Assembly (NCBI GenBank): GCA_963743305.1
Contig: CAVUPH010000007.1
Span: forward strand, 1-64,000
DNA from: an uncultured delta proteobacterium
GTDB lineage: Bacteria > Desulfobacterota > RBG-13-43-22
Reading direction: 5' to 3'
DNA: 64,000 nucleotides
The notes beneath the pieces were generated by a model. The model had not been told where the DNA came from. It saw only the letters and a program-made list of their open reading frames with translations, and ran no database searches. Positions 8,396 through 24,007 of the stretch are shown piece by piece. Every line of letters starts with the position of its first letter. The first letter of the stretch is position 1. Position numbers and translations under genes: made by a program.

Positions 8396-8520
8396 TTGAT
8401 TATGTAGGACTATTCTGTTATAAAATCGACATTTGGATAAGAAATCTGTTTGGCAACCCTTTAACGGAGGAGTCAATGCCAATTTGAAACCCTACTTCTT
8501 TTATGGAGGTGGGGTTTTTT
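8396..8520 (+). ncRNA. Candidate small transcription unit: promoter, SD, 3-codon minigene, intrinsic terminator
   Basis: TTGATT-17-TATAAA; TTTGGCAACCCT; GGAGG; ATG CCA ATT TGA (8476-8487); hairpin plus T-run; homologous to 12544-12675. Confidence 0.45.
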
Positions 8521-8541
8521 CAATATAGGGCATGAGACTTA

Positions 8542-9128
8542 TTGAGCTGGGGACCGAAAGCCAACAAGGAAAAGCCGATTTCCTTTGAAAGGCAGATGGA
8601 GGGGATTGCCAGGATACCGGAGCGGCACCGTGATATTTTTTATTTCGCAGTGGAAACGGCGCTTCGGATCGGGGAAGTTTGCGCCCTGCAGGCCCGAGAT
8701 TTCGAATTAGACCGCCGGCGCGTCTGATCCAACGGACCTATTCTCATTACAAATTAAGCGAGACGACGAAGCAGGGCAAGGTGGACTATATTCCGCTATC
8801 AGATAGGGCGCTTTCGCTGGCCGGGCGAAACCTTAAAAATAAGATCGGAACCGCTTGGGCCTTTACCCGGGACGGAGCCCATGGCTACCATCCGGCCTAT
8901 CTTCGCAAATTATGGCGGAAATACTCCGGGATTCCCGAAAAGCTTTACGTTTCGGTCAGGCACTCGACCCTTACCGATTGGGCTGCTCAGGGTGCCAACG
9001 CCTTTAAAGTCCAAGCGCTGGCCCGGCATTCGGATATTCGGACCAGTTCCAACTATGCGGAAGCGGCTCAAGGCCGGCTTTATGAGATTGTCAATCGTGA
9101 TACAAATGAAATGAAATTAAGACGTTAA
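8542..9128 (+). pseudogene. Tyrosine recombinase/integrase catalytic domain (N-terminally truncated, frameshift near 8720)
   Basis: TALRIGEVCAL (catalytic R), TK, YVSVRHS, QALARHSDIRTSSNY (H and Y). Confidence 0.85.
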
Positions 9129-9157
9129 AGCTACTCATTTTTTGAGGTAAATTCGAA

Positions 9158-9545
9158 ATGACTACGACCGACCTACTCGGCATTCTCGGGATTGGTAGCG
9201 TGATCGGCATCATAATCTCGAAGTTTTTTGATATCCTGTGGTTACAGAACACTATTATGCGAAACGAAAGCATCAAATGGCTCCGTGATCAAAGGCTCAG
9301 AGTCTTTACGGGAGATATGGGCCGATTTTGTCACGCTGGGGTTGAGAGATACCCGACAAGATTTTCTAGAAATAGTGGCAACAGCTTCGGAAGCTATTTT
9401 GCTGATAGGTGACAAGGTTCTGCAGGCCAGGATCGAGACATTTATCGATGAACTCTCGATGCTTCATAGAGAAACCAGAGACCCGCCTACTGAAAGCGAA
9501 ATAGACGAGGAATCGGGCGCCTTAGTTCCGAGGCCACGCTTATAG
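9158..9545 (+). CDS. Hypothetical protein with N-terminal TM helix (apparent frameshift near 9310)
   Basis: Hydrophobic LLGILGIGSVIGIII; two overlapping ORFs that read as one protein. Confidence 0.5.
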
Positions 9546-9621
9546 TTGAATCTTTGCGCGGAGCCTTGATGGATAGAAGTCTCGTTAGATTGATAAGAGA
9601 TAACAAGTAGATGGGTTGGAT

Positions 9622-10454
9622 ATGGTAAAACACGAAAAAATAGACAAGAATATAGACTGGATCGCGTATCGGTGCGTTAGTGGTCTCTTTCATTACTCTT
9701 GGCTATACGGTTTATAACAACCATGTTCAAAACAAGATAATCCAAGGCACCGGGTTTATTGCTCAGGGCCTACAAAACAGGCCTACATTGAGAATAATGG
9801 GAGAGCCTGAATTAATAAAAATACAATATCAATCAAGGGCCTTAGTGTCGGGCAAGGAGGTTACTAAAATAATTAAGACAACCCTAACGGTTGACACGAG
9901 AATAAAAATTAGGAATGATGGCAATTCCAACGCGCAGCTGATTTTTTATGCAATAACAGATCGTCTATCGGGGCTACCCGAGTTAAGGGACAAAAACTTC
10001 CAACAAAGAAGAGTTCAAGAAGTTCGCAGAAAAGCTTTCCATACAAGCACACTCAATGGACAATTACTACAAAACAATAGATATTCTGCCGGGAAAAGAG
10101 CAAACGCTTGAAGCAGTATCTAGGCAGGTGGCGGAAATAAGAGAAGGCGCATTCAATATCCATTATTACTTGGTCTACGAGAATGAGGCCGGCAATGTCT
10201 ATGATACCTATTACTGGGCAAGATTCCAATCGAAACAGTTTACCATTAATCCTCAAGCGGATAGCGCCACTATTGAGAAAGCTCTTAGAGACTCAATCGT
10301 TTTTATCGATGACCACCATTCCTACACGATTTACGACAAAGAAGATTCTCTTTTCTTGAGGAATTTTCGCGAGTTTCTAAAAAATGAGTATAAATATATT
10401 CCACCATCTCCACTAAGGGGTTCAGGTAAGGTTCAGGTAGCCGATTGGGCCTAA
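9622..10454 (+). CDS. AT-rich hypothetical membrane-anchored protein (apparent frameshifts)
   Basis: ORFs 9680-10111 and 10056-10454 overlap; N-terminal hydrophobic segment; low GC. Confidence 0.5.
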
Positions 10455-10471
10455 GTGAAATCAAATAGTTA
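10419..10471 (+). promoter_or_regulatory. att-arm-like region: direct repeat GGTTCAGGTA x2 and an IHF consensus site
   Basis: GGTTCAGGTA-A-GGTTCAGGTA; AATCAAATAGTTA matches WATCAANNNNTTR about 12 nt before the tRNA fragment. Confidence 0.45.
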
Positions 10472-10482
10472 GAACGGTAAGG

Positions 10483-10824
10483 GTGGGTTCGATTCCCATG
10501 CACTTCCGCCAGTTATTATTCTCCAATAATTTTTACCAGAACCCTTTTCTTTTTGCCTCCGTCAAACTCTCCGTAAAAAATCTGCTCCCAGGGGCCGAAA
10601 TCGAGTTTTCCGCCGGTGACGGCCACCACCACCTCCCGGCCCATGACCTGGCGTTTCAGGTGGGCGTCGCCGTTGTCCTCACCGGTCCGGTTATGGAGAT
10701 ACTGACTGACGGGTTCGTGGGGGGCCAGTTTTTCCAGCCAGCGGTCATAGTCCCGGTGCAGCCCGGACTCGTCGTCATTGATAAAGACCGAGGCGGTGAT
10801 GTGCATGGCATTGACCACGATGAG
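10483..10824. repeat. Array repeat 1: tRNA-Sec-like 3' end (10483-10511, +) plus 5'-truncated yjbQ (10516-10824, -)
   Basis: GTGGGTTCGATTCCCATGCACTTCCGCCA followed by sequence encoding NAMHITAS...[10 protein letters not shown], near-identical to 23588-24007. Confidence 0.92.
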
Positions 10825-10961
10825 GGCGGTATTTAAACATCCGGAGCCCCCATTTCCCCCGCTTCTTGATTGCTTATCTTTGTAAAAACATTCGTAAAAA
10901 TACATTATATACAATTCAATTCTAACTTGAATTTGATAAATGGAGTATATATAATGCAATT

Positions 10962-11207
10962 ATGCTATTCGATATCGGCAAGACAATTCGCGAGGCACGG
11001 AAGAACTGCAAAATGACCCAGGAGGAATTAGCCGAAAAACTGGGGATGAGCCGGACCACGATCGGGCAGATCGAAAATGGCACGGTTCAAGAGGTTGGAG
11101 TGCGGAAATTGATCCGCCTCCTCGATCTTCTAGGACTGGAGTTGAAGGTCCGGTCCAAAGGCAGGCCGCCTACCTTGGAGGAATTGCGTAACGAGGAGAT
11201 TGGCTGA
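10962..11207 (+). CDS. HipB-like XRE/HTH antitoxin
   Basis: MTQEELAEKLGMSRTTIGQIENG HTH; PTLEEL tail; coupled to the HipA-like gene; TTGAAT-17-TATAAT ends just before the ATG. Confidence 0.85.
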   Translation: MLFDIGKTIREARKNCKMTQEELAEKLGMSRTTIGQIENGTVQEVGVRKLIRLLDLLGLELKVRSKGRPPTLEELRNEEIG

Positions 11208-12418
11208 TGGGAGGAGTCACGTCGCTGGCCGTATGGGCCGGGGACAAGCCATCAGGTATTCTGGCCCGGGAGGGAGGTCGGGATTATGTCTTCGCCTATT
11301 CCCCGGAAGCCGCTGCCGACGCCCAGGTTTCCCTGACCATGCCGGTTCGGTTGGAGAGTTGGCTTAGCCGCGAACTGCATCCCATATTTCAGATGAACCT
11401 GCCGGAAGGTGCCCTGTTGGAGACGATTCGGCGGGCCATTGCCAAGCTGGTAGGCGAAGATGATCTGTCGATCCTCCGTGTAACCGGGGGGAATCAGGTG
11501 GGGAGAAACCGGTTCTCCCTCCCCGGGGACGATTCGCCCCGTCTATCCGAAACTCCCGAGTCTCTCGATGAGATGCTCACCTACCCGGATAGTCGGGAGC
11601 TCTTCCAGGAACTGGTGGCCCGCTACGCCCTCCGTTCGGGGATTTCCGGAATCCAACCCAAGGTTATGCTGGAGGCCACCGAGCGCGGCACCCTTTCAGC
11701 GTCGGGTTTTATCGTCAAGTCCGGGGGCACGGATTACCCGCAAATAGCCGCCAATGAGTATTTCTGCATGACGGCGGCCAAGCGGGCCGGCTTGCCGGTG
11801 CCGGAATTCCATCTCTCCCGGAACGGCGGCTTATTCATCCTGCGTCGATTTGACCTGACCCCGGAGGGCACCTCTATCGGGTTCGAGGATATGTGCAGCC
11901 TCCAGGCCCTGGGGACCGCGCAAAAATACACCGGGAGCTACGAACGGGTGGCCCGGAGCATCCGGGACTTTGTTTCCGGTGACTACCTGCCGGCAGCCCA
12001 GGAGCAGTTTTTCGCGACCCTGGTGCTGTCGGTGATGGTGCGCAACGGAGACGGCCATTTAAAGAATTTCGGAGTCCTGTACCCCACCCCTTCCGGTGTG
12101 GTGACGCTGGCGCCGGTCTACGACCTGGTGACCACCACGGCCTATCTCAAAAAGGACGTACCCGCTCTTTCCATAGCGGGAACCAAGAAATGGTGGCCCC
12201 GTAAAACACTGGAGCGCTTTGCCGTGTCTCATCTTTCGCTGCCGGTTAGGATCGTCGCCGACACCATCGAACGCCTGGCCGAGGCGGTAACGGAAACGCG
12301 GACAAGTCTTTCAGCCTACCGGAATGAACATCCGGAATTCCGGGAGATCGGCGGGCGGATGTTGGCGGAGTGGAATGAAGGGGTGAAGGAGATGGTTGAA
12401 CTTAGATCAGTAATATAA
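11207..12418 (+). CDS. hipA: HipA-family kinase toxin
   Basis: SGIQPK, NEYFCM, RRFD, FEDMC, NGDGHLKNF and LAPVYDL motifs. Confidence 0.93.
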   Translation: MGGVTSLAVWAGDKPSGILAREGGRDYVFAYSPEAAADAQVSLTMPVRLESWLSRELHPIFQMNLPEGALLETIRRAIAKLVGEDDLSILRVTGGNQVGRNRFSLPGDDSPRLSETPESLDEMLTYPDSRELFQELVARYALRSGISGIQPKVMLEATERGTLSASGFIVKSGGTDYPQIAANEYFCMTAAKRAGLPVPEFHLSRNGGLFILRRFDLTPEGTSIGFEDMCSLQALGTAQKYTGSYERVARSIRDFVSGDYLPAAQEQFFATLVLSVMVRNGDGHLKNFGVLYPTPSGVVTLAPVYDLVTTTAYLKKDVPALSIAGTKKWWPRKTLERFAVSHLSLPVRIVADTIERLAEAVTETRTSLSAYRNEHPEFREIGGRMLAEWNEGVKEMVELRSVI

Positions 12419-12543
12419 ACCCCGTTTTTTCCCCTGGATTATTCTTCAAACCGATTATTCGATCATTCCGCTGCAGGGCAAAGGTTTAATTCGTTCTTTT
12501 CTTATTATTATAGGGGACCCTTTAATTGGGTGATCAATATTTG

Positions 12544-12675
12544 TTGACTTTTTTCCTGGTAGGAGGTAGGAAAATTAGAGAAAATTAACAAAAATTCCTT
12601 TGGTAACCCTCTGACCAAGGAGGTCCAGTGAAAGAATAATAGACCCCATTTCTCATCAGAGAGATGGGGTTTTTA
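12544..12675 (+). ncRNA. Candidate small transcription unit: SD, 3-codon minigene, terminator (homolog of 8396-8520)
   Basis: TTGACT; TTTGGTAACCCT; AAGGAGGT; GTG AAA GAA TAA (12628-12639); hairpin ACCCCATTTCTC/GAGAGATGGGGT plus T-run. Confidence 0.45.
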
Positions 12676-12733
12676 TTCAGTGTTATCCCGAGGCAGGTGC
12701 AACTTATGATTTAAACCGGTACAGGGGGGGGAA

Positions 12734-13060
12734 ATGAATTATTTTGAAGATTTTGAAAAGATAATCGAAAGAGCAAAAACAAAGCCCAAAAAAACCATTA
12801 TAATACTTATAGTGTTATTAATATTTGCTTTTGCGATAGCATATGGCAAAGCATTTTTCTCAGCAATGGCAATAAATCATGCCAAACCTTCAATTCCTGC
12901 CCAAAGTGAAAAATCTGAATCATGCACAACGCTTATTAAACAAGCAGGTAGTGAAAAAGCCAATAACACAGCCATAATAGAACAGGAAACCAAAGGGAGC
13001 CAGAGCCCAGCGATTGTAACGAATAAAGACGTAAAGATAATTTACAAAGGTAGCAAATGA
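12734..13060 (+). CDS. AT-rich hypothetical membrane protein
   Basis: One TM helix; C-terminal EQETKGSQSPAI motif. Confidence 0.65.
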   Translation: MNYFEDFEKIIERAKTKPKKTIIILIVLLIFAFAIAYGKAFFSAMAINHAKPSIPAQSEKSESCTTLIKQAGSEKANNTAIIEQETKGSQSPAIVTNKDVKIIYKGSK

Positions 13061-13533
13061 ACAAATTGAAACTAATTGAACATTATGTGCTTGCTCTCGC
13101 TTCAGTTGCAATCCTTCTATTAGGCTCAATCCTCTTAGCTAATGCACAGCAAATAATCAAACAGGAAACACATGGTGTGCAAAGTCCAGCTATTAAAGCC
13201 GGTGGTAATGTGACGGTTATCTATAAGAGTCTACCTAAAGCAGAACGAGAGCTTATTTTTAGGCAAATGGGTAACAACCAACAGCTTATTGATCGCCTCT
13301 TAATGGAGTTGGAGGCACAAAATGCTGAATTGGAAAATAGCAGAGTTGAGATTAAAGAATGGGTAAAGAAATATGAGGAGTTAAAATTTAAAATTTCTGA
13401 ACTATCGGAAGCAACTGAACAGTCTAAAAAAGCTAAAGCAGAGGCTAAAGCAGCGCTGATTGGAGGAGACTTGAAAAAGGCCGAATCTGCAACTCTTAGA
13501 GGTGGTAGTATTAGCGGCGGATCGATTAGATAA
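13057..13533 (+). CDS. AT-rich hypothetical exported coiled-coil protein
   Basis: Signal-like N-terminus, KQETHGVQSPAI motif, heptad-rich C-terminal half; 4-nt overlap with the upstream ORF. Confidence 0.65.
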   Translation: MNKLKLIEHYVLALASVAILLLGSILLANAQQIIKQETHGVQSPAIKAGGNVTVIYKSLPKAERELIFRQMGNNQQLIDRLLMELEAQNAELENSRVEIKEWVKKYEELKFKISELSEATEQSKKAKAEAKAALIGGDLKKAESATLRGGSISGGSIR

Positions 13534-13645
13534 ATTGAAAGGAATGTGGGGGGAGAATTAGCATAATTCAAAGGGAATCAAGTTCAATTTTCCACTCCTT
13601 GGTTTATTATTAGGATAAACAAGTCTCTTATTAGGTAAAGGCCAT

Positions 13646-13982
13646 GTGGGTTCGATTCCCATGCACTTCCGCCAGTTATTATTCTCCAATAATTTTTACC
13701 AGAACCCTTTTCTTTCTTCCCCCGTCAAATTCTCCGTAAAAAATCTGCTCCCAGGGGCCGAAATCGAGTTTTCCTCCGGTGACGGCCACCACCACCTCCC
13801 GGCCCATGACCTGGCGTTTCAGGTGGGCGTCGCCGTTGTCCTCCCCGGTCCGATTATGGAGATACTGACTGACGGGTTCGTGGGGGGCCAGTTTTTCCAG
13901 CCAGCGGTCATAGTCCCGGTGCAGCCCGGACTCGTCGTCGTTGATAAAGACGAGGCGGTGATGTGCATGGCCTTGACCAGGA
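13646..13982. repeat. Array repeat 2: tRNA-Sec-like 3' end (13646-13674) plus 5'-truncated yjbQ (-)
   Basis: Same 29-nt tRNA end as repeat 1; about 300 bp of yjbQ with a 1-nt deletion near 13951. Confidence 0.92.
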
Positions 13983-14193
13983 CAGGCCTTCCGGATCGGC
14001 TGGCTTTGAACTGTACCCGGAGGGCATATGACAAACCGACATTATTAAGCGTAGAAAATCTTGATACGGCAGCGAAACATTCAAGCGCGAAGTGGCTGAT
14101 TTAAAAAAACAGCTTGCGGAGAAGCCCAACCCCGCGGTATTATCCGCAAAGAAGGCCGGGTAATCTGGGTGGCGTTTCAGGAGGAATCAAGCC

Positions 14194-14436
14194 ATGGAGT
14201 TAGCAAATCATACTTTGGAGTATGACGGCGGGGAGTGGCTGGCCATTCTCCCGGAACTGGAAATCTACGGCGATGGACTGACGGAAGGGGAGGCCATCGA
14301 AGACCTCAAGTCCGAACTGCTGGATCTTTATGAAGACCTGAACAGCATCCGGGCCCAAAAACTGGGGCGGGGTCTCCTGGCTAAAAAGCGGATTATCAAC
14401 AAGATCGTCCGGAAGACCAAAACCCGGCCTATATAG
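14194..14436 (+). CDS. HicB-like antitoxin-fold protein
   Basis: WLAILPELEIYGDGLTEGEAIEDLK; SD AGGAGG. Confidence 0.7.
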   Translation: MELANHTLEYDGGEWLAILPELEIYGDGLTEGEAIEDLKSELLDLYEDLNSIRAQKLGRGLLAKKRIINKIVRKTKTRPI

Positions 14437-14465
14437 ACATTATACATCAACCAAAGGAAAACGCC

Positions 14466-14807
14466 ATGCCTGAAGAAACCGCCTTATTTTTTAACGTCCT
14501 GATCAAGAAGACAGACGAAGGCTTTCTGGCCCATTGCCTGGAACTTGACCTGGTGACCACCTCGCCCACGGTAGAGCAGGTACGGGAAGATATTATTGAC
14601 GTGATCGCCTCCCAGGTGGACTACGCCTTCACCCATGACAATCTGGATTTCCTCTACCATCCGGCGCCTCCGGACGTCTGGACTGAATTCTTTTCCTGCC
14701 GTGGGGCATCGGTTGAGATAAAGCGATCCATAGCCTCCCCCGGGGGCACTGTTCCGCCCTGGATCATCGCCAAGACCTGTAAATCTCCTAATTTACAGCA
14801 TGTCTAA
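14466..14807 (+). CDS. HicB-like (DUF1902-type) protein
   Basis: FLAHCLELDLVTTSPTVEQVREDI...PAPPDVW. Confidence 0.7.
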   Translation: MPEETALFFNVLIKKTDEGFLAHCLELDLVTTSPTVEQVREDIIDVIASQVDYAFTHDNLDFLYHPAPPDVWTEFFSCRGASVEIKRSIASPGGTVPPWIIAKTCKSPNLQHV

Positions 14808-14862
14808 GCGACCGTTGACGGTCCGGGAACTCCTCCAAAATGAAATCAGCCACGGGCATCTT
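14800..14862 (+). pseudogene. Possible truncated HicA-like toxin N-terminus
   Basis: ATG overlapping the HicB stop reads MSKRPLTVRELLQ, then runs into repeat 3. Confidence 0.45.
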
Positions 14863-15115
14863 TTCGATTCCCATGCACTTCCACCAGCTACTATTCTCCA
14901 ATAATCTTTACCAGTACCCTTTTCTTTCTTCCCCCATCAAACTCTCCGTAAAAAATCTGCTCCCAGGGGCCGAAATCGAGTTTTCCTCCGGTGACGGCCA
15001 CCACCACCTCCCGGCCCATGACCTGGCGTTTCAGGTGGGCGTCGCCGTTGTCCTCCCCGGTCCGATTATGGAGATACTGACTGACGGGTTCGTGGGGGGC
15101 CAGTTTTTCCAGCCA
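14863..15115. repeat. Array repeat 3: tRNA 3' fragment (14863-14886) plus shorter yjbQ 3' part (-)
   Basis: TTCGATTCCCATGCACTTCCACCA; [10 protein letters not shown]...IIGE. Confidence 0.92.
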
Positions 15116-15117
15116 TT

Positions 15118-15534
15118 TTGGAAATAACAAATGAAGATAAAATGACTATAGTTTGTGATTATAATGATCTGCCAAATAAACCAAATAAAAATTTTACTAT
15201 CCGACCATGGTATAATAATATTGCCAGAGGTCCTGATATGTTTGTAAAAAATTCCCCTAATGGATTCTTTATAACCTGTCGCATCAATAAAATTCAGTCC
15301 AAAGAGATGGCTTTTACCAAAGATTGTTTTTTTCTTGGTGCCATGAAATCAAAAGTAATCAATATTGCAGTAAAAATATTTTGCGATGAATTTGCCGAAC
15401 CAAAACAAGAAAAGCTTGAGGTTGGTTTTGAAGTTAAGGATCGGATTTATCCAGTTGATGATTTAGCCAGGGCCCCGTGGACCTTGTCATCATTACCATT
15501 ACCCCCGCGGCCGGGGTGTCGGAAGAGACCCTGA
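15118..15534 (+). pseudogene. AT-rich hypothetical ORF fragment, apparently cut at its 5' end by repeat 3
   Basis: The open frame begins exactly at the repeat junction without an SD; composition shifts near 15470. Confidence 0.4.
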
Positions 15535-15587
15535 AGGAAAAGGTAGCCGAGATCCTGGCCCCCTACACCGTCCGGTATCAACTGATT

Positions 15588-16463
15588 TTAGGTTGAGGCA
15601 GACGAAAACCCGGGTCCGTTTTCCACTTTGATACCCAAACCCGCCCGCATTCGATCTAGTCCCTGTTGATGCACCGCCCATTGCCGTCCTCCGGTCAGAC
15701 CCCCGTCCACGATCAGGTTGTGGCCGTTGACAAAGGTGGATTCGTCCGAAGCGAGAAAAACGGCCGCCAGGGCGATATCCTCCGGAAGACCGGGCCGCGG
15801 AATGGGCTGCATGACCGCCAGGGCCTGTTTGATGGCTTCGATGCTTTGCTCGGCTTCCTCGGTCGGCAAGCCAAGGGCTTTGCCGAAAATGCCGGTGGCA
15901 ATGCCTCCGGGTGAGATGCAGTTGACCCGGATGTTACTCTCTCCCAATTCCATGGCCACGCATTTTGTCAGGTGGATAACGGCCGCCTTGGCCGCCGAGT
16001 AAATCATTGACGAGGAATATCCGGCCAGGACACCGGCGACGCTGCCGTTGTTAATGATGCTGCCTGAGCCCTGGGCCCGCATGACCGGCGCCGCGTGTTT
16101 CATGCCCAGCAGGACCCCGCCCAGCAGGACCGACAAGGCCGCCTCATATTCGTCCCAAGGGATGGTTTCTATCCCTCCCACCGGGGCCGGACAACCGGCG
16201 TTATTGAAAAGGCAATCCAGGCGTCCGAAACGTTTCACAGCGTAGTCGATCATGGCCCGGACATCGGCCTCCCGGGACACGTCGGTTTTCAGGAAATCGA
16301 CCCGGGGGCCTAAAGCCTCTGCCAGTTCGCGTCCCTCCTTTTCCCGCCGGGCGGCGATGAGAACGAAGGCCCCTTCCCGGAAAAAAAGTTCAACGGTCCG
16401 TCGCCCGATGCCGCTGGTCCCTCCCGTAATGATCGCCGTTTTACCGTTTAATCGTCCACTCAC
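15588..16463 (-). CDS. SDR-family oxidoreductase
   Basis: TGGTSGIG, NNAG, YSAAK, IRVNCISPG. Confidence 0.93.
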   Translation of the reverse strand: MSGRLNGKTAIITGGTSGIGRRTVELFFREGAFVLIAARREKEGRELAEALGPRVDFLKTDVSREADVRAMIDYAVKRFGRLDCLFNNAGCPAPVGGIETIPWDEYEAALSVLLGGVLLGMKHAAPVMRAQGSGSIINNGSVAGVLAGYSSSMIYSAAKAAVIHLTKCVAMELGESNIRVNCISPGGIATGIFGKALGLPTEEAEQSIEAIKQALAVMQPIPRPGLPEDIALAAVFLASDESTFVNGHNLIVDGGLTGGRQWAVHQQGLDRMRAGLGIKVENGPGFSSAST

Positions 16464-16653
16464 GTCTTTTTTTCCTTTCCGTCCCCATTCCCGGAAGGGA
16501 CTAACGTCTCCAAGGCTTTGTATACCCCTTCATCAAGGATAGGATTAATCTTCCTATTGAATATATATAACAATCGATCCTATTTCAATGCTTGAATTAC
16601 CTGGTTGGAAATGGGTGCCGACCTTCGTTCCCTTTATGACAGGATCTAAAACA

Positions 16654-17080
16654 TTCGATTCCCATGCACTTCCACCAGCTACTATTCCCCAATAATCTTT
16701 ACCAGGACCCTTTTCTTTCTTCCCCCGTCAAATTCCCCGTAAAAAATCTGCTCCCAGGGGCCGAAATCGAGTTTTCCCCCGGTGACGGCCACCACCACCT
16801 CACGGCCCATGACCTGGCGTTTCAGGTAGGCGTCGCCGTTATCCTCCCCGGTCCGATTATGGAGGTACTGACTGACGGGTTCGTGGGGGGCCTGTTTTTC
16901 CAGCCAGCGGTCATAGTCCCGGTGCAGCCCGGACTCATCATCATTGATAAAGACCGAGGCGGTGATTTGCATGGCGTTGACTAGAATGAGGCCCTCCCGG
17001 ATGCCGCTCTCCTTCAAACAGCGCTCGACCTCCTCGGTGATCCTGATGAAGGCCCGTCGCCCGGGGATGTTGAATCACAG
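16654..17080. repeat. Array repeat 4: tRNA 3' fragment (16654-16677) plus nearly full-length yjbQ pseudogene (-)
   Basis: Similarity extends to about codon 7 of yjbQ; the Trp codon is changed to TGA and the start is missing. Confidence 0.92.
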
Positions 17081-17213
17081 GGATTTTTTGCCGGACAAAA
17101 ATGATCTTGACAAATGTCTTTAATACTTTCATATAATTTCTTTCATTCCGACACATTCCCTTGAGTTTTTAGACAAATAAAATTTATAAAAGCGCCTCGC
17201 TGGATAAGGCAGA

Positions 17214-20200
17214 TTGGAGTGTATTATGCGAGTTTGCAGAAACAACCGGACTGTCAAACAATCGATTGGCGATAAGGTCGAATACGGTGAAAGGACAGGC
17301 GGGGGGGGCCTTTCCTTCCTAATCGTGATGGCGATATGGATCCTGGGCGCTCCCTCCGCTTGGGCCCAGCCGGTCACGCTGCATTTCGAAGAGTATCCGG
17401 GGGGGACCCGGATCGACAACCAGTACCAGCCGCTGGGGGCCCATCCCCATTTCATGAACGATTACCAACCGGATGTTACCTATTATCGCGCCAGCCCTAT
17501 AATCGAGGCCCACTCCAACGCCAAGAGCGGTTCCACGGTCCTGGTGAACGGGTATTCGGACCTGGAGTTTCACAGCAGCGCCACGGTGCCTCTGGTCGTC
17601 TGGTTTGAGCAGCCGGTGAGTGGGGTGGGAATGTGGCTGGGGACAAGAACGGGGATGGGCTGCAGCGGTGGGGTTCAGGCCAAGGTATCGATTTATGACG
17701 GCGGCGGCGCCCTCCTGGAAGAAAAAACGGCTACGGCCAGCAGCGCCTTCAACACACCACTGGAACTCGACGATACCCTGGGCAGGATCCGCAAGGTGGC
17801 CATCGATTACGGCGATTCGCTCTGTCCGGAGGCGATCGATGAATTCGCTTTTCAATCGGGTTCCGGCCAGACCGTCGACACCACTCCGCCCCAGGTGACT
17901 ATTACTTCGCACACCAATTTTCAAACCGTAGCCGGTAATTCCGTGCTGCTGGCCGGCACGGTCCAGGAAAATTCCGGGATCCTAACCAGCGTGATGGTCA
18001 ACGATAGCAACCCGATCCCCTTTTACCCGGTGGCCGGCGGCGGGGGAACGCTCTTCCAGTTCAGCAAGCCCCTGACCCTGCACGGCGGCAGCAACGCCAT
18101 CACCGTGGCGGCTTACGACGGGGCCGGCAATAAAGGTAAGGCCTCGCTGACTCTCAACCAGGGCACTCCTGCGGACATCACTCTGAAGCAGTTCCACCTG
18201 ACCCAGCGGGGAATCATGCAGAATATCTCCTGTGATGTGGACGGCAGTGGAACGAATAAGGAATTCGTGGCCGGAAAATCCGCCGTGGTCCGCATTTTTC
18301 TGGACGTCAAGACCGTCGCGGGGGACGACACCTATGTCTCCTCGGTGGAACTCCGGCTCTACCGCAAAGAGCAGGGGGTCGATCTGCTGGTCGATACCTT
18401 CATCGGAAGCGGCACGTCGCCTTTCATCAGCAATTTCAAATCCCCCAGTGAAATGGCCGGGATCCATTTCTATATCCCCGGAGACAAATTGGACCCGGCG
18501 GGGGAGTACAAATTCGAGGTTCAGGCCTATGTGGGTGTCAACCCGGTTTATCCAAAAGTAACCTCCTATTGCGGCGGTCCGAACCAGGACGGGGATTATT
18601 TCACCTTTGTCGAGACCAAACCCGTCCGCATATTCATTGTGCCGGTCGAGGCCGCCAACACCAATCCCCACCAGTCAGCGGACCATGTCAAAAATTATTA
18701 CAGCCAACTGGAGACCCTGGCCCGAACCTTCCCGGTTCGCGACGGTTACAGCCAACCGTGGGAGAACCGCAAGACCGGTGTCTATTTCATCGAAGGCGAT
18801 CCGCTGCGCCTTTGCGACGGCAGCGAGGCCATGCACCAACAATACCCCCAGGTGTGCGAAGGCAGCGGCTGGACCTGGCGGTTGACGGACAAGGACCCCG
18901 GCGGGATACTGAGAAGGGCCAACCATTTTTTTGTATATGACCCTAACAATCCGTCCATCACTTGCGGGGGCAACCCGGCGCTACGCAATCAGGGGGGCAT
19001 GGTGACTTTCAACGGTGCCCTTTTGACCGGCCCGCTGGAGACCGTGAATTTCGTTCCGGACCTGGGCCTTTTCCGCCCCGGGTCCCACCCGGAATGGGAT
19101 GATGGGGCGGGAATCATTAAATATTATGTTCCCATCGACGATGACCACGACGGCCAGATCGGTCCGGGCGATCTGCAGCATTTCGTGGCGGAGTACTACG
19201 ATAATTTCTCGAAGCAATGGCTCTCCGATCTAACCTATTACAATCACGGCGAGACCTATCGCTTTTTTCGAGATCAAGATGGAAACCAGTGTCAAAGCCG
19301 GGATGAGGACGGCAATCTTACCGAGCCCCAGGCCGATGTGGTGCGCCTGTGGGAGAATGCCGGAAAAGTGGCCTATCACGCGGCGGAAAAGGCCATGGAC
19401 GGCTACTATGCCAGTCACCCGGTCCCGGCAGAGGAAAAGGCCAATTTCGCCTCACTCTGGTTCCCCACCGTGGTGCATCCAGACCGGCGGGATTTTAATT
19501 TCTGGGGCCCCGGCTCTTCCACCGGCCGATCGAACTGGATCCGGGTCACCTATGACCAGACCATGGCTCATGAAATGGGACATAATGTGGGCGGCCTCAA
19601 AGATACCTATCATCAGGGCGGTTGTTTTAATCCCCCGAATCGACTCAATGCTTGGAACGCCTTCATCGGATTTGAAAGCGTGCCGGCTGCTAACATCGGC
19701 AACCTCTGGGATGTCATGGATTGTTCCAGAAGTCCGGAACAATCCATTTTCAATAAAGCGAATTATGACGCTCTGTTCGACAAGCTCAAGGTGTCTACCG
19801 CGTCTGTTGGAGGCCTCCAAGACGCCGGACCCAAACTCCTCATGGCCGGTAGGATTACCAACAGCGGACAGGCTGAAAACGTGCATATCCAACTCAGTAC
19901 CCACCTGGAAGCCACGGTGGCCAACCCGTTTGGTCCTTATTTGCTGCGCTTCGGTGCCGGCTCGGCCGCCCTGTCTGAGTTCCCCTTTGCGGTGGATGGC
20001 ACAATCCATCCTCCCCAGGGGGTTTCCAGTTGGCCCTTGCCCTTCAGCCCTTTCCGGGTCGTGGCGCCCGTCCCCGGCGGCACCGAGTGGGTGGAACTGC
20101 GCAATCAGGATGTTCTTTTAAAGAAATTCGTAAAATCGGCGAAGGCCCCCACGGTGCAACTCCTTTTCCCGCAAGGGGGGGAATCTTTCGGCGCCAATGA

Positions 20201-21146
20201 CGAGGTTACGATTCGCTGGACATCCGGCGATGCCGACGGGGACCCCCTGGTCCATACCCTTTACTATTCTCCGGACGGCATCAGCCGCTGGATGCCGATC
20301 GCTTCAGGTGTGGCCGGCAATGAGTTCCGTTGGAAACTGGCCGACTTTCCGGGGACCACATCCAACAGCGGATTGATCCGAATCGTGGCCTCCGACGGAT
20401 TCAATACCGGGGAGCACATCCTGTCCGCGGGGATTACCGTTGCCGGTAAGCCCCCTCAAGCGGCCATCTTCCATCCGGAAGCCGATCAGGTCTTCCTGGA
20501 ATGCCAACCGATCCGGGTCCGGGGAATGGCCCGGGAGCCTCAGGGCCAACTGTTATTCATCCTGTGGTACGTGGATGACGTCCTGGTCGACTGGAGCTTC
20601 AATCTGAACCCGGTCCTGGGACCTCTCGCGCCCGGGGTGCACAAGATTTCCCTGGTGACGTTCAATGTGACCTTGGCGGCGGCGGTCAGCAGCGTTTCGA
20701 TCTCCGTCCTGGCCGACAGCGACTGTGACGGTATGAGCGATTATTTTGAGGAACTTCATGGTCTGAATCCCTACTTTGCGGAGGACGCCCGACTGGACCC
20801 CGATCAGGATGGGATGAGTAATCTGGAAGAGGCCTGGCGGGGTACCGATCCCGACGTACCCGAACTGGCCAGCTTGACGATCGTCGTTCAGCCGGCCCAG
20901 GGAGGGATCGTCAAGGGGGATGGAATAGACTGCCCGGGAGTCTGCGGCAAAAAATTAAATTATGATGTGAGTGCCAACCTGACGGCCGGGTCGAAGCCGG
21001 GGTTTGCATTTGCCGGCTGGGAGAATTGTGACATCGCCCAAGGGGAATCCTGCACCGCTTACGTTTACGGAGACCGGACGATAACGGCAATTTTCGAGCA
21101 ATCGTTTTTTCACCTGCATCTCCCGATCATTTTTAGAAGTCAATAG
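17214..21146 (+). CDS. Large secreted multidomain protein, putative zinc metallopeptidase (start uncertain)
   Basis: Signal peptide ..APSAWA/QP; Ig-like DTTPPQVTIT; HEMGH zincin motif; DSDCDGMSD/DPDQDGMSN Ca-binding-type repeats; C-terminal HLHLPIIFR; upstream TTGACA..TATAAT at 17107-17137. Confidence 0.75.
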   Translation: MECIMRVCRNNRTVKQSIGDKVEYGERTGGGGLSFLIVMAIWILGAPSAWAQPVTLHFEEYPGGTRIDNQYQPLGAHPHFMNDYQPDVTYYRASPIIEAHSNAKSGSTVLVNGYSDLEFHSSATVPLVVWFEQPVSGVGMWLGTRTGMGCSGGVQAKVSIYDGGGALLEEKTATASSAFNTPLELDDTLGRIRKVAIDYGDSLCPEAIDEFAFQSGSGQTVDTTPPQVTITSHTNFQTVAGNSVLLAGTVQENSGILTSVMVNDSNPIPFYPVAGGGGTLFQFSKPLTLHGGSNAITVAAYDGAGNKGKASLTLNQGTPADITLKQFHLTQRGIMQNISCDVDGSGTNKEFVAGKSAVVRIFLDVKTVAGDDTYVSSVELRLYRKEQGVDLLVDTFIGSGTSPFISNFKSPSEMAGIHFYIPGDKLDPAGEYKFEVQAYVGVNPVYPKVTSYCGGPNQDGDYFTFVETKPVRIFIVPVEAANTNPHQSADHVKNYYSQLETLARTFPVRDGYSQPWENRKTGVYFIEGDPLRLCDGSEAMHQQYPQVCEGSGWTWRLTDKDPGGILRRANHFFVYDPNNPSITCGGNPALRNQGGMVTFNGALLTGPLETVNFVPDLGLFRPGSHPEWDDGAGIIKYYVPIDDDHDGQIGPGDLQHFVAEYYDNFSKQWLSDLTYYNHGETYRFFRDQDGNQCQSRDEDGNLTEPQADVVRLWENAGKVAYHAAEKAMDGYYASHPVPAEEKANFASLWFPTVVHPDRRDFNFWGPGSSTGRSNWIRVTYDQTMAHEMGHNVGGLKDTYHQGGCFNPPNRLNAWNAFIGFESVPAANIGNLWDVMDCSRSPEQSIFNKANYDALFDKLKVSTASVGGLQDAGPKLLMAGRITNSGQAENVHIQLSTHLEATVANPFGPYLLRFGAGSAALSEFPFAVDGTIHPPQGVSSWPLPFSPFRVVAPVPGGTEWVELRNQDVLLKKFVKSAKAPTVQLLFPQGGESFGANDEVTIRWTSGDADGDPLVHTLYYSPDGISRWMPIASGVAGNEFRWKLADFPGTTSNSGLIRIVASDGFNTGEHILSAGITVAGKPPQAAIFHPEADQVFLECQPIRVRGMAREPQGQLLFILWYVDDVLVDWSFNLNPVLGPLAPGVHKISLVTFNVTLAAAVSSVSISVLADSDCDGMSDYFEELHGLNPYFAEDARLDPDQDGMSNLEEAWRGTDPDVPELASLTIVVQPAQGGIVKGDGIDCPGVCGKKLNYDVSANLTAGSKPGFAFAGWENCDIAQGESCTAYVYGDRTITAIFEQSFFHLHLPIIFRSQ

Positions 21147-21387
21147 GTCGACTCCCGATTTTTGCCGACAATGGAGGCCAGGACGACCCTCCCTGAAGCT
21201 TGATCGTGAGACGCCGTTGGTCGTAAGGAATTCTCATGGGATACCGTTAACTGCTTCTGGTTTATTACACTCTCAGTTTTTAAAAAATCGCAAGATTTCG
21301 AAAATTGAGCAACGGTTCACGAATAAAGCATCTTTATTTTATTGATAATTGTAATTTATCGTGTTATTAATATAACTTAAGTCAAGT

Positions 21388-21535
21388 TTGAAGGAGTTGC
21401 AAAAGTCTGTCAGAGAGGGTTTGTCATTTTGAGTCCCGCGCTATCGCGGGACTCAGAATCTCGTTTTTTCAGATAGTTCCGAGATCCTTCACTTCGTTCA
21501 GGATGACAGTTCGGGACTTTTTGCGAGATCATCAA
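21388..21535. mobile_element. MITE-like element with terminal inverted repeats enclosing a REP-like hairpin
   Basis: TTGAAGGAGTTGCAAAAGTC ... GACTTTTTGCGAGATCATCAA; solo ends of the same type at 34342-34364 and 45637-45657. Confidence 0.6.
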
Positions 21536-21553
21536 GTCTCTCCTCGCCTAGAA

Positions 21554-21677
21554 TTGAATTAAAAAAATTGGACTTCTAAACTTAACCCCAACCTTTCGGG
21601 AGCGGGATATGAAGTGGGAGTTGAAGTTTGCGATGTGAAGCCTTCATAGGGAATTAAACCCTTGTGGAGGCTTTTTT
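21554..21677 (+). ncRNA. Candidate small transcription unit or leader: promoter, 9-codon ORF, terminator
   Basis: TTGAAT-17-TAAACT; ATG at 21609 (MKWELKFAM*); hairpin AAGCCTTCATAGGG/CCCTTGTGGAGGCTT plus T-run. Confidence 0.4.
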
Positions 21678-21801
21678 CTTAATGGGCTTATATCTAAATT
21701 TTTTTCGCATATCTTTATGTCATCGTTCTTAAAGGGTAATCTCCGTAGCTGAAAAATATTCAGCCCAGGCCTTAACCCGTTTATTTGTATCAGGAGGCAC
21801 C

Positions 21802-23346
21802 ATGAAAATAGGGAAATGGATGTGGACAGGGTTACCTCTGCTCCTGATGATTGGATGGGGTATTCCCCCCGGCGAGGGCTTGGGGCAAGATATAGGGTGG
21901 ATGCAGAAGGGAGTCCGCTTATGGTATTTCGGTGGTGTGGATAGCGGAGGGGTTACCTCATCAGATGCGGAAGAGGCCTATTTGATTGAATCGATTGAAG
22001 GCGCAGATGTTCGAATGACGCACTATGCCGCCTTAAACCATTGGGGGTCGCCTCACCCGACCGAAACCGGTGCTACTCCCCTCCTGGATAGCGGACCTTG
22101 CTGGATACACCCGCTGCAATTGAATAAACTTAAAACTAATGATTATTGGAGGGGCCAAAAGATTATCTTCTTAAAACGCTCCAGTTTTGCTAATGACCCC
22201 CCGCCATACCAGCTCCTGCCCGGAAACGCCCTTTATAATTTGAATCCCCAGAGAGAATTGGTGATGATTTCCTATATTCTTCCCGATTTCAGTACGGGCA
22301 ATGCCTATTTCGATGCGGAAACGGGCCTTCTGCTCTATTATCACAACTTGTGGGGAACAAATAATAAAATGTTCTTCATCCTGAGTGAGATCAATTATGA
22401 TTTTGACACCAGGAAGGCTTTTCCCGAAGATGGCGGTCCGCATACGGGTTTCCATTCCTGGGTGAGTGAACGATCGTTGGGTAATTTTCTTACGGGGGGA
22501 GGCACGGTAGATATTCATTCTCAGATTGAAAGCCGTTATGGAGATATTGTCAGAATGTGGGTTATAACGGACCTTTCCAAGTCCACTGTAATCCACTTGA
22601 CAGAGAACTATTGCTTTTTCGGCAGTATTCCCTTGGTGCGGCGCATCGATTACCTACTGCAGCCGCCCCAGACCCCGCCCGACCAGTGGGAGCCGTACGG
22701 CCAATACCTCTGGTGGTGGGTACCGCCCAATACCTTGGAAGGCACAAGCATCAATGTCCTTGGAGTTCCTATGTCCCGGACCGTTTCCACTTCTCAGACG
22801 ATCGGCGCGGGGCCGGTTACGTTTTCAGCCACCGAGGCCCCGCAACGCTTTCACTTTTCCGAACTGGTTTTCGGAGAGGACGGCTATTTGATTCAGTTTT
22901 CCGCCAAGGATCCTTCCATTGGGCTCGATGTAAATCCGGGCGATTACCTCTTTACGAACGGAACAGTTTTATATGGACTCGATTATTATCAAGAATACAT
23001 GGGTACGGCGACCCCATCCAAACCTTCGGCCTTTAATAAAGTCGGCCCGGCCAACGGAGCGACTATCCCGGTCAGCAACCTGACATTAAGCTGGAGGAAT
23101 AGCCCCGGGGCGGCCGGTTACGAATATTGCTATAAGAAAACTAACAATACCCTATGTGACGGAAACTGGATTACAGCCGGCTCCAGCAACTCTGTCGTTC
23201 TCAGTGGGTTGGACATAGGCATAAGCTATTATTGGCAGGTGAGGGCTCTTAACGATTTTGGAACCATTGACGCGGACGAAGGGAACTGGTGGGGGTTTAG
23301 TGCAACTCCCTATTATTACTTATATCTGCCGATGACTTTGAGATAA
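21802..23346 (+). CDS. Secreted protein with C-terminal FN3-like domain
   Basis: SD AGGAGG, signal peptide, LSW..SPGAAGYEYC..YYWQVRA; ends YLYLPMTLR. Confidence 0.8.
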   Translation: MKIGKWMWTGLPLLLMIGWGIPPGEGLGQDIGWMQKGVRLWYFGGVDSGGVTSSDAEEAYLIESIEGADVRMTHYAALNHWGSPHPTETGATPLLDSGPCWIHPLQLNKLKTNDYWRGQKIIFLKRSSFANDPPPYQLLPGNALYNLNPQRELVMISYILPDFSTGNAYFDAETGLLLYYHNLWGTNNKMFFILSEINYDFDTRKAFPEDGGPHTGFHSWVSERSLGNFLTGGGTVDIHSQIESRYGDIVRMWVITDLSKSTVIHLTENYCFFGSIPLVRRIDYLLQPPQTPPDQWEPYGQYLWWWVPPNTLEGTSINVLGVPMSRTVSTSQTIGAGPVTFSATEAPQRFHFSELVFGEDGYLIQFSAKDPSIGLDVNPGDYLFTNGTVLYGLDYYQEYMGTATPSKPSAFNKVGPANGATIPVSNLTLSWRNSPGAAGYEYCYKKTNNTLCDGNWITAGSSNSVVLSGLDIGISYYWQVRALNDFGTIDADEGNWWGFSATPYYYLYLPMTLR

Positions 23347-23385
23347 ATATTCCTTAATCTCTGTGAATCCGTAATTAGATCGTCT

Positions 23386-23470
23386 ATATCCCCGAGTGTC
23401 TTTGTCGGGGATCCAGAATCGTACCAGACCGGGTCTGGATTCCCGCCCGGAAGCGCTGCGGGAATGACGA
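23386..23470. repeat. REP-like palindromic element
   Basis: ATCCCCGA..TCGGGGATCCAG..CTGGATTCCCGC..GCGGGAATGAC. Confidence 0.6.
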
Positions 23471-23559
23471 TAAGAAAACCACAAGACGGTCGATTCTATT
23501 ATGAGACCATTAATACAAAGCATGTTTTTATTCCAATTGATTGATTGGCTGGGAGAGTA

Positions 23560-23583
23560 TTCGATTCCCCTGCACATCCACCC
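23560..23583 (+). repeat. Array repeat 5: most degenerate tRNA 3' fragment, abutting the intact yjbQ
   Basis: TTCGATTCCCCTGCACATCCACCC; IHF consensus on the minus strand at 23534-23546. Confidence 0.8.
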
Positions 23584-23587
23584 GTTA

Positions 23588-24007
23588 CTATTCTCCAATA
23601 ATTTTGACCAGCACCCTTTTCCTCCTTCCCCCGTCAAACTCCCCATAAAAAATCTGTTCCCAGGGACCGAAATCGAGTTTTCCCCCGGTGACGGCCACCA
23701 CCACCTCCCGGCCCATGACCTGGCGCTTCAGGTGGGCGTCGCCGTTGTCCTCCCCGGTCCGATTATGGAGATACTGGCTGACGGGTTCGTGGGGGGCCAG
23801 TTTTTCCAGCCAGCGGTCATAGTCCCGGTGCAGGCCGGACTCGTCGTCGTTGATGAAGACCGAAGCGGTGATGTGCATGGCGTTGACCAGGATGAGACCC
23901 TCCCGGATCCCGCTGTCTTTCAAACAGCGCTCGACCTCCACGGTGATATTGATGAAGGCCCGCCGCCCCGCGGTGTTAAACCATAATTCTTTTCGATAGG
24001 ATTTCAT
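23588..24007 (-). CDS. yjbQ: YjbQ/UPF0047 family protein (secondary thiamine-phosphate synthase family), intact copy
   Basis: [35 protein letters not shown]. Confidence 0.93.

Follow-up and report, generated by a model that had tools for sequence, protein, structure and literature searches.

A five-copy array of tRNA-Sec scars and yjbQ fragments in an uncultured Desulfobacterota genome, and how it may have grown

How does one interval of a bacterial genome come to hold five copies of a repeat that is part transfer RNA (tRNA) and part protein gene, with unrelated genes lying between the copies? The question is raised by the first 64 kb of contig C7 (GenBank CAVUPH010000007.1, positions 1 to 64,000) of genome G000, an uncultured delta proteobacterium of the Desulfobacterota. 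We refer to this whole 64,000-nt stretch as the window. Between a gene for an FAD-linked oxidase on the left and a gene of the metallo-beta-lactamase (MBL) fold on the right, the window carries five direct repeats in which the 3′ end of the gene for the selenocysteine tRNA (tRNA-Sec, gene selC) is joined to a 3′ part of yjbQ, the last of the five ending in the intact yjbQ gene. A first-pass annotation, made from the letters alone, had noticed these composite repeats at 10483, 13646, 14863, 16654 and 23560 and had read them as the delimiters of an integron-like platform. The five-copy array is confirmed in the assembled contig, and it is a real accretion array of unrelated cargo. The integron-like platform does not hold up, as there is no working integrase and no attC-like fold, and the locus is better explained as a displacement and accretion stack shaped by recombination and deletion. 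Our preferred reading, to which we give a probability of roughly 0.45, is that the interval is a recombination hot spot that has grown by sequential displacement, anchored in MBL and the 5′ side of yjbQ.

A repeat search of the window returns a single family with five direct copies, starting at 10487, 13650, 14862, 16653 and 23559. A profile search agrees with it, placing the copies at 10488-10826, 13651-14010, 14863-15116, 16654-17087 and 23560-24007. The profile picks up no additional degraded unit across the 64 kb. Pairwise identity between copies is 89.9-97.2%. Each unit is made of a tRNA-Sec 3′ end of 24-29 nt (the scar), 4 nt, and a 3′ part of yjbQ, with the yjbQ stop codon 4 bases beyond the CCA equivalent of the scar, and the repeats run 225-420 nt into yjbQ beyond the attachment-site (att) block. 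All five begin at the T-loop, in keeping with the annotated left end in the T-arm, and copies 1 and 2 have 5 extra bases of the T-stem. The 24-nt tRNA part is found five times at up to 3 mismatches, against 0 times in 100 shuffles, and in copies 1 and 2 the 36-38 nt at the left end agree with the 3′ end of the real tRNA-Sec and its first downstream bases at 35/36 and 36/38 positions. The right end does vary, as had been noted, with copy 2 being about 350-365 nt long and not 335. Copies 1 and 3 retain 339 and 254 of the 448 unit positions, the truncation lying near the yjbQ 5′ end, on the MBL side. Coordinates are collected in Table 1.

The topology of the array has one polarity. The intact yjbQ abuts MBL, and the other copies are all truncated at the 5′ end and followed, in the downstream direction of the gene, by their own scar and unrelated cargo. 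Read in the direction of the gene, the order is MBL, intact yjbQ, scar and cargo, and then four modules of truncated yjbQ, scar and cargo, the outermost of which ends with a 5′-truncated integrase.

What do the substitutions in the truncated copies say about their past? The intact gene, of 139 codons, matches Pfam UPF0047 with 123 bits and TIGR00149 YjbQ with 107.6 bits (cutoff 67.75). It is the sole intact UPF0047 gene in the genome, whose six matches are the five array copies and one on a second contig, C25. Among copies 1, 3, 4 and 5 and the yjbQ genes of three sister genomes, compared in the yjbQ frame, the ratio of nonsynonymous to synonymous differences per site (pN/pS) is 0.06-0.19 and pS is 0.17-0.34; for intact genes compared between sister species the values are 0.09-0.13 and 0.30-0.32. 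Copy 2, which has a 1-nt deletion and a right end that is not homologous to yjbQ, gives a higher ratio, 0.26-0.38. Because the divergence is mainly synonymous, as it is between the orthologues of different species, the fragments are, by this substitution pattern, former working alleles of several separate lineages that were truncated recently. Copies 1-3 are 94.7-95.9% identical to the yjbQ of one sister genome (G003), and 91.5-93.3% identical to the resident copy 5.

Variants are also distributed in patches along the units. Over the left 45 nt or so copy 1 has the variants of copy 2, and copy 3 those of copy 4; between 23625 and 23812, copies 2 and 3 have just 2 listed differing sites. Such a patchwork of variants indicates probable recombination or gene conversion within units.

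The YjbQ protein is itself well conserved. The 80 best genome matches to the window copy (L082-L161) are 77-87% identical to it and come from many phyla (Chloroflexota, Nitrospirota, Acidobacteriota, Planctomycetota and others), a conservation that is unusually high for a protein of 139 amino acids. At none of the loci of these 80 best matches, with up to 10 kb of flank per side or less at contig ends, is there a yjbQ fragment (a single unrelated paralogue of 32% identity was seen), and the array pattern is therefore lineage-restricted.

We have compared the window with three sister genomes of the same genus (G001, G002 and G003) and with the metagenome contig L168. The backbone of the three sisters is collinear with that of the window at 86-92% identity, with the FAD oxidase on the left and MBL onward on the right. 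On the left, collinearity with G002 and G003 (85.8-88.3%) extends as far as window 8316-8340, and the stretch compared in G001 stops short of the FAD oxidase; on the right, the backbone including MBL is 86-88% identical to that of the relatives. The interval between FAD oxidase and yjbQ-MBL is hypervariable in 3/3 sisters, measuring 4-10 kb and being different in each. Since yjbQ adjoins MBL in 3/3 same-genus loci, versus 0/27 other loci examined, its position beside MBL is specific to the genus. As side observations, the genes between yjbQ and MBL differ in every sister genome (L039, L040, L041), and the full-length yjbQ of G003 (L011/L041) is matched by tblastn in two pieces, residues 1-45 and 31-139, and may be frameshifted. 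In G002, an open reading frame (ORF) of 139 amino acids between yjbQ and MBL (L040:11448-11867) overlaps the MBL stop by 4 nt, like the yjbQ of the window; it was considered as a yjbQ paralogue and rejected (BLASTP E 0.73).

The first-pass annotation named the same architecture with different cargo across strains as something that would support it, and related genomes do show this: the sister loci, L168 and a distant member of the family, G031, all provide cases. Two-unit versions are present in G001, G003, C25, L168 and G031. In G031 the locus starts with a yjbQ fragment of 133 nt, which shares 78% identity with the intact G031 gene, and continues with VapBC, two DUF genes, an RHH-ParE pair and that intact yjbQ. 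Fragments of yjbQ have no tRNA part in C25, G003 (left), G031, G030 and G018, those of G030 and G018 being on other contigs. The exact junction between tRNA and yjbQ fragments has 0 matches in genome contigs, and 0 in metagenome contigs when searched with a 31-nt pattern. A 22-nt junction pattern has one match in metagenome contigs, which is L168 (1564 nt). In L168 a scar comes first, with a complete open yjbQ after it; 146 nt further on follow the left part of cargo 2, the equivalent of ORF 14194-14436 (96.3%) and a different second ORF, and then the next scar and yjbQ.

Cassettes are shared among these loci beyond what their backbones would give. Between the window, G003 and C25, the HipBA cassette has an identity of 96.6-97.3%, versus 78-88% for the backbone. 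The yjbQ fragment on its left differs by genome, that of C25 being closer to copy 4 (96.9% identity) than to copy 1 (85.7%). On the right of the cassette, a scar of the same type is found in the window and, about 240 nt further right, in G003, and a joint seen in sequencing run X1 ties the scar directly to the end of hipA. The C25 locus is in the same bin as the window, and its contig (G000:C25:1-12642, reverse strand) aligns to window 3-8272 at 78-87% identity as a second collinear copy of the locus and the left backbone. A HipBA cassette is present there as well, and the yjbQ of C25 has several indels and one in-frame TGA. Either C25 comes from a sister population that was binned together with the window, or it is a large duplication that has diverged.

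Are the variable right ends a property of the event that made each unit? The first-pass annotation had proposed one site-specific end and one variable end. Copy 2 aligns to L168 8-375, and window 13997-14213 aligns to L168 606-811, with a 14-nt overlap in the window. From these two overlapping alignments, copy 2 is the L168 arrangement after the loss of about 230-245 nt, which cover the yjbQ 5′ end and the spacer, and its right end is, on this comparison, a secondary deletion of a once complete yjbQ. Logan contigs from four sequencing runs, aligned at 88% likeness, are short, single and of low depth, and the parts of the array that they do not cover are uninformative. They contain two other variants of the copy-2 joint, from 23937 plus 12 nt to 14064 (X1) and from 23994 to 14063 (X4), each in a single low-depth contig, and another X1 contig (845 nt, 20 differences) spans cargo 2 into unit 3. 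Logan joints between two yjbQ copies (e.g., 10692 to 23840) were considered as rearrangements and rejected, as they are simply other alleles. Three other fragments have been trimmed by deletion: the 64-nt fragment of C25 stops at the start of a short run that also occurs in the hipB promoter region, the G003 locus after HipBA is the window arrangement without its pair of orphan ORFs and without the bases that begin the scar, and the G001 fragment has an internal deletion. The variable end is thus not supported as a property of the primary event, and at least part of it is later decay of once complete copies.

The tRNA part of the units raises its own question, as there is no intact tRNA-Sec beside them. 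The intact tRNA-Sec of the genome is on another contig (G000:C6:26765-26857, 75.1 bits), and neither ARAGORN nor Rfam finds one in the window; over 5-26 kb, Rfam at E<=10 reports chance-level matches only and no tRNA-Sec, the fragments being too short. The sister genomes too lack selC at this locus and carry it on other contigs, so that the name "selC-yjbQ locus" is not supported. Rfam reports no tRNA-Sec within 1.5 kb on either side of yjbQ in 20 relatives, a flank that falls short of the tRNA-Sec of G004, 1.6 kb off. In G004 the intact tRNA-Sec and yjbQ are separated by a toxin-antitoxin pair, a 255-aa ORF (1931-2698) and a 90-aa ORF (2714-2986). We considered this as an ancestral direct adjacency of tRNA-Sec and yjbQ and rejected it, since a 1.6-kb gap is unlike the 4-nt junction.

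In the family, a 25-nt tRNA-Sec 3′ end is present in 19/21 genomes, with extra partial copies in G003, G005, G007, G019 and G020 (the two matches in G007 are one intact tRNA-Sec and one partial copy). The tRNA-Sec islands of the three genomes examined, G019, G020 and G005, have repeats of 67-70 nt that start in the anticodon loop, and no duplication of a flanking gene, which bears out the earlier remark that the window is not what simple attP x attB recombination at a tRNA gives. These islands (L072, G019:C6; L073, G020:C6; L074, G005:C1) measure 0.7-7.7 kb. G019 has an additional partial copy with a 56-nt offset inside the tRNA region, and G007:C176 (L046) has a partial tRNA-Sec from the variable arm, about 0.8 kb from the tmRNA gene. 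Relatives of the cargo are found next to real tRNA-Sec genes: a paralogue of ORF 14466-14807 (about 80%) is directly downstream of the intact tRNA-Sec in G002 (L076:7253-7745), and a 75% homologue of HipBA ends 86 nt from the intact tRNA-Sec in G009. Downstream of tRNA-Sec in G000:C6 itself (L001) there is only a deleted remnant of a relative of ORF 14466-14807.

In the window, the T-loop position at which cargo joins scar is identical for all five cargos, different as these are. Over the 10-20 nt just left of the scars, the sequences form two loose motif classes. Class A is common to copy 5, the fragment of G001 and, in another genus, a partial tRNA-Sec (G005:C21) that ARAGORN does not call as a tRNA; class B is common to copies 1 and 2 and both L168 units. 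These cargo-scar junctions look like attR sites of T-loop-type tyrosine integrases.

How could such an array grow? We infer the following route. Incoming DNA from related lineages would carry, starting from the MBL side, an intact yjbQ, a tRNA-Sec scar and the cargo of that lineage. A homologous crossover would take place in the conserved MBL and yjbQ-5′ side, and the far end of the incoming DNA would join illegitimately within or just upstream of the resident yjbQ. The resident yjbQ would lose its 5′ end and be moved outward with its scar and cargo, and the incoming yjbQ would become the working copy beside MBL. Repetition would give n modules of yjbQ fragment, scar and cargo, with the newest at the MBL side. 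Completed stacks could spread across species by ordinary homologous recombination in the yjbQ copies, and would later be trimmed by microhomology deletions. The tRNA-Sec 3′ pieces may be old att scars of T-loop-type tyrosine-integrase elements that brought cargo beside yjbQ, and the truncated integrase of the outer end may be the relic of one such element. Toxin-antitoxin cargo, HipBA and others, may favour events in which old modules are retained; HipAB has been reported to stabilise a composite island (PMC8978831). Overall, a mixed history seems likely, in which integrases delivered cargo and left scars, and recombination then stacked and shuffled modules. Of the two mechanisms offered by the first-pass annotation, homology-driven recombination anchored in yjbQ fits better, and circles with an extended att arm are less favoured.

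Several points weigh against sequential displacement. The illegitimate joint is postulated, and the polarity that puts the newest module at MBL is a prediction of the model. Homology through yjbQ and scar predicts simple replacement of the cargo, and only the toxin-antitoxin argument explains repeated duplication. The fixed T-loop junction and the motif classes point to site-specific recombination, and to an integrase having had some part. The closeness of copies 1-3 to one allele, that of G003 (all 94.7-95.9%), makes the linkage of cargo to its right-hand unit weak. The HipBA cassette has the same start in two genomes despite a different left fragment, which fits a discrete cassette with fixed ends (e.g., a circle) at least equally well. 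Finally, the five-unit array comes from one contig of a metagenome-assembled genome (MAG), and its bin also contains another, diverged version of the locus.

A bolder reading, which we regard as doubtful, is that of an integrase-free cassette platform. Here the conserved yjbQ would be a portable homology arm, multi-gene cassettes flanked by yjbQ would be exchanged across species by host recombination, and addictive toxin-antitoxin cargo would force accretion over replacement. The locus would then be a functional analogue of an integron, with the tRNA-Sec att scars as a second, site-specific entry for fresh cargo.

Among the rivals, the one that survives best, although we consider it unlikely, is a RecA pop-out and pop-in. 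A crossover between flanking yjbQ copies would free a circle with cargo, scar and one yjbQ, which could re-insert in any yjbQ by a Campbell-type event. The homology is duplicated upon insertion and no integrase is needed, the first duplication being a rare illegitimate event. Repeats of 254-448 nt with 90-97% identity and long identical runs are adequate substrates for RecA, and the mosaic pattern of the units is as this model would have it; no circle or empty-site junction is seen, in a view limited to short contigs of other samples. The window and G003 agree in the base at which the HipBA cassette starts (10824 = L041 oriented 7817), behind different left fragments, as expected of a fixed circle joint and a crossover in the repeat. 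Circles leave unexplained the origin of each distinct junction between cargo and scar. And while the complete yjbQ at the inner position of L168 is what a whole-gene circle would give, the truncations in the array cluster toward the 5′ end instead of being random, though n = 3-4.

Somewhat less probable is a platform run by an integrase, with circles carrying tRNA-Sec and yjbQ fragments as an extended att arm (from aberrant excision, as in specialised transduction) and a tyrosine integrase inserting them at the T-loop core of the scar. The T-loop boundary that is identical in 5/5 units with five different cargos speaks for it, as do the two classes of conserved short motifs left of the core, one of them shared with the partial tRNA-Sec of G005:C21. 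Moreover, tRNA-Sec is an island hot spot in the family, with extra partial copies in 5 of the 21 genomes (G000, G003, G005, G019 and G020), and cargo kin lie beside real tRNA-Sec genes (the HipBA homologue in G009, the cargo-2 ORF paralogue in G002). The 5′-truncated integrase remnant at the outer edge is what aberrant excision would leave, yet the array has no intact integrase, and homologues of the remnant at E<=1e-10 are found in 0/20 family genomes. The yjbQ fragment left of HipBA is not inherited together with the cassette, and the breakpoints of the mosaic are 45-65 nt inside the unit and not at the T-loop. The variable right end of copy 2 goes back to a later deletion, and the five loci named above have fragments without a tRNA part. 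In addition, every scar has a yjbQ fragment behind it, though plain attP x scar events would leave bare scars; neither the 24-nt pattern nor the profile search finds a scar without one in the window.

Could the array be an artifact of assembly? Strains with one cassette each could have been threaded through their shared yjbQ into an array that no single cell has. We consider this improbable, even though the source is a MAG of 43 contigs, 90.1% complete and 5.7% contaminated, whose bin holds the second locus of C25, 78-87% identical and broken off inside yjbQ. No public sequencing run has more than 13% (0.13) of the sampled words, and the patchy sharing between neighbouring units could be a consensus artifact. 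Against a chimera, each exit from a truncated yjbQ to its cargo is a unique junction, which must exist physically, and two-unit arrays are found in four independent assemblies (G001, G003, L168 and G031). Differences of 3-10% between copies are usually separable by assemblers, and even if the array were chimeric the phenomenon would stand, as its length alone would shrink.

Had the yjbQ region been duplicated locally in tandem, with divergence and in situ cargo insertion afterwards, direct repeats in one orientation would result. We give this reading hardly any credence, because the fragments diverged as working genes in separate lineages: most of their divergence is synonymous (pN/pS about 0.1), its depth is that seen between species (pS up to 0.34), truncated copies could not evolve as working genes, and copies 1-3 are nearer to the G003 gene (94.7-95.9%) than to copy 5 (91.5-93.3%). 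One-ended rolling-circle transposition (IS91/ISCR-like), which the pairing of a fixed with a variable end had suggested, was rejected, as no HUH/Rep family is found by Pfam among the 19 array and flanking ORFs. The idea of XerCD/dif modules was also dropped; no dif-like sequence was seen by eye against the dif consensus, with no formal scan.

We now turn to the cargo (Table 1). The integrase that had been listed in it is real sequence and not an intact gene: what is left is a frameshifted C-terminal fragment, of which two ORF pieces match Pfam Phage_integrase below cutoff (21.7 and 21.5 bits), the frameshift being visible in a three-frame reading. HipBA with its orphans is upheld by Pfam (HTH_3 for HipB; HipA_C with 158.8 bits and Couple_hipA for HipA), and so is the short-chain dehydrogenase (adh_short_C2, 196 bits). 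No Pfam or NCBIfam support is found for the "HicB-like" genes, with only a sub-threshold PHD_like match for 14194-14436. The cargo 2 cassette is also present in L168 and in a Logan contig of run X1. Dispersed repeats of about 60-130 nt, 76-92% identical and found in many contigs, occur at 23388-23515 (about 128 nt), 21401-21535 and 12614-12677; they look like miniature inverted-repeat transposable elements, and in G003 one of them lies between the tRNA scar and yjbQ. A 23-nt pattern of the short segment next to the left backbone has a single occurrence in the window, against 0 in 100 shuffles, and one at C25:362-384.

Two observations concern the neighbours. Relative to both G002 and G003, the FAD-oxidase gene of the window has extra bases at 7276, 7410 and 7413, which we considered as a clue to the sequencing technology and dropped, as they are not of the homopolymer type. 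Just right of the MBL gene, window 25173-26384, with an ATPase_2/AAA ORF (25254-26381), is 97.9% identical to G003 between flanks of 87-89.5%, and looks like another recent exchange.

Table 1. Features of the array and its borders in the window, followed by the content of the corresponding loci in related sequences
Feature	Position	Strand	Content
Left backbone, FAD-linked oxidase gene	6747..8207	-	Pfam FAD_binding_4 and FAD-oxidase_C; split by small indels
31-nt segment	8385..8415	+	Abuts the yjbQ stop codon directly in contig C25
Tyrosine-integrase pseudogene	8530..9128	+	Catalytic domain only; one frameshift; N-terminal domain missing
Cargo 0	9228..10454	+	Three orphan ORFs (9228-9545, 9680-10111, 10056-10454); no Pfam/NCBIfam family
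Unit 1	10483..10826	+	tRNA-Sec 3′ end 10483-10511, 4 nt, yjbQ 3′ part
Cargo 1	10827..13645	+	HipB 10962-11207, HipA 11207-12418, terminator-like hairpin, orphan ORFs 12734-13060 and 13057-13533
Unit 2	13646..14010	+	tRNA-Sec 3′ end, yjbQ part with 1-nt deletion; right end is a deletion joint
Cargo 2	14011..14862	+	ORF 14194-14436 (sub-threshold PHD_like), ORF 14466-14807 (no family)
Unit 3	14863..15116	+	tRNA-Sec 3′ end, yjbQ part; shortest
Cargo 3	15117..16653	both	Orphan ORF 15118-15534 (+), short-chain dehydrogenase 15588-16463 (-)
Unit 4	16654..17087	+	tRNA-Sec 3′ end, nearly complete yjbQ without about the first 8 codons; open frame
Cargo 4	17088..23559	+	1310-aa Big_7-domain protein 17214-21146, 514-aa protein 21802-23346 (Pfam), repeat 23388-23515
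Unit 5	23560..24007	+	Diverged tRNA-Sec 3′ end 23560-23583, 4 nt, intact yjbQ 23588-24007 (-)
Right backbone, MBL-fold gene (proposed homology anchor)	24004..24741	-	Pfam Lactamase_B_2; stop overlaps the yjbQ start by 4 nt
Locus in G001			Second, internally deleted yjbQ fragment, still beginning with T-loop bases
Locus in G002			One yjbQ
Locus in G003			47-nt yjbQ fragment, HipBA cassette (96.6-97%), tRNA-Sec scar, dispersed repeat, its yjbQ
Locus in C25 (same bin)			64-nt fragment, HipBA (97.3%), yjbQ running off the contig end; whole locus 78-87% identical

What would sequential displacement mean for how genomic islands are understood? The usual models of island growth invoke either integrases at short att sites or the replacement of whole islands via flanking core genes. 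The locus follows a third pattern, so far reported mainly for toxin/immunity loci, in which old modules are kept and pushed outward with each new allele. Should this be true as well of an ordinary gene whose cargo is metabolic and of the toxin-antitoxin kind, displacement would be a possible general, integrase-independent route to defence and accessory islands in uncultured sediment bacteria, and the past donors of an island could be read from the gene fragments at its junctions. In addition, the locus is a concrete, testable case of site-specific scars coexisting with homology-driven stacking.

How does the locus compare with known systems? With integrons it shares a one-directional array of unrelated, mostly integrase-less cassettes between copies of a recurring element, but all three defining features that we tested are absent (intI, attC, and cassettes of single promoterless ORFs in one orientation). 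No intI is present, the only integrase being a broken generic tyrosine recombinase, and attI and Pc are likewise absent. The element that recurs, a direct gene fragment, neither is an imperfect palindrome nor folds: seven single-stranded DNA folds of the unit left ends give z values from -0.73 to +2.48, with no attC-like fold among them. The cassettes here are multi-gene, 0.85-6.5 kb long with 2-4 ORFs, and use both strands (the dehydrogenase being opposite).

Prophage e14 and phage 21, integrated in icd of E. coli, bring a long alternative 3′ end of their target gene and leave a diverged fragment that differs mostly at synonymous sites. Each of these is one element alone, whose integrase works and whose crossover is fixed, whereas the array has many modules, no integrase, and variable ends shaped by deletion. 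In the accretion of integrative and conjugative elements, integrative mobilisable elements and cis-mobilisable elements, tandem elements share att repeats, including integrase-less elements that are mobilisable in cis. The repeats of such accretions are short att sites, and the accounts available to us do not describe long diverged fragments of the target gene at the junctions.

Additive tRNA islands, or tycheposons, come closer. They are described (bioRxiv 10.1101/2020.12.28.424599) as having partial tRNA 3′ repeats between modules and degenerate integrase fragments, with new modules shifting the older ones onward. In the window, 5/5 units likewise have tRNA 3′ direct repeats, the 24-29 nt T-loop-to-CCA block. 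On the other hand, tycheposon-type islands are described there with an intact anchoring tRNA and repeats of tRNA alone (bioRxiv 10.1101/2020.12.28.424599), whereas our array has no intact target tRNA at its end, its repeats are not limited to an att block with a cognate integrase, and each scar is followed by 230-420 nt of a neighbouring protein gene from another lineage.

The closest likeness is to the displacement arrays of V. cholerae type VI secretion system (T6SS) effector-immunity loci and of Rhs C-termini. As described (PMC5361080), these arrays too have an intact conserved gene on the anchor side, followed by 5′-truncated remnants each with its own downstream cargo, the remnants having come from other lineages by horizontal transfer. 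To explain such orphan arrays, homology-facilitated illegitimate recombination with a conserved upstream anchor, and then homologous spread, was proposed, and the authors themselves remark on an integron-like look without an integrase (PMC5361080). Our array has the same two properties, an intact gene on the anchor side of truncated copies with distinct cargo, and copies that come from functional genes of other lineages. It differs from what is described for T6SS and Rhs in that the repeated gene is small and enzyme-like (YjbQ/UPF0047) and not a toxin, in that the cargo consists of toxin-antitoxin pairs, a short-chain dehydrogenase, orphans and large Ig-domain proteins instead of immunity genes or toxin C-termini, and in that each remnant also bears a tRNA-Sec att scar; in those arrays retention is selected by immunity. 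The array thus works like a displacement array and stands outside the toxin-locus family, of which it is not a member. The type of array is known. What is new here, and what we consider real and unusual, is a displacement-type array at an ordinary small gene, yjbQ, with tRNA-Sec scars.

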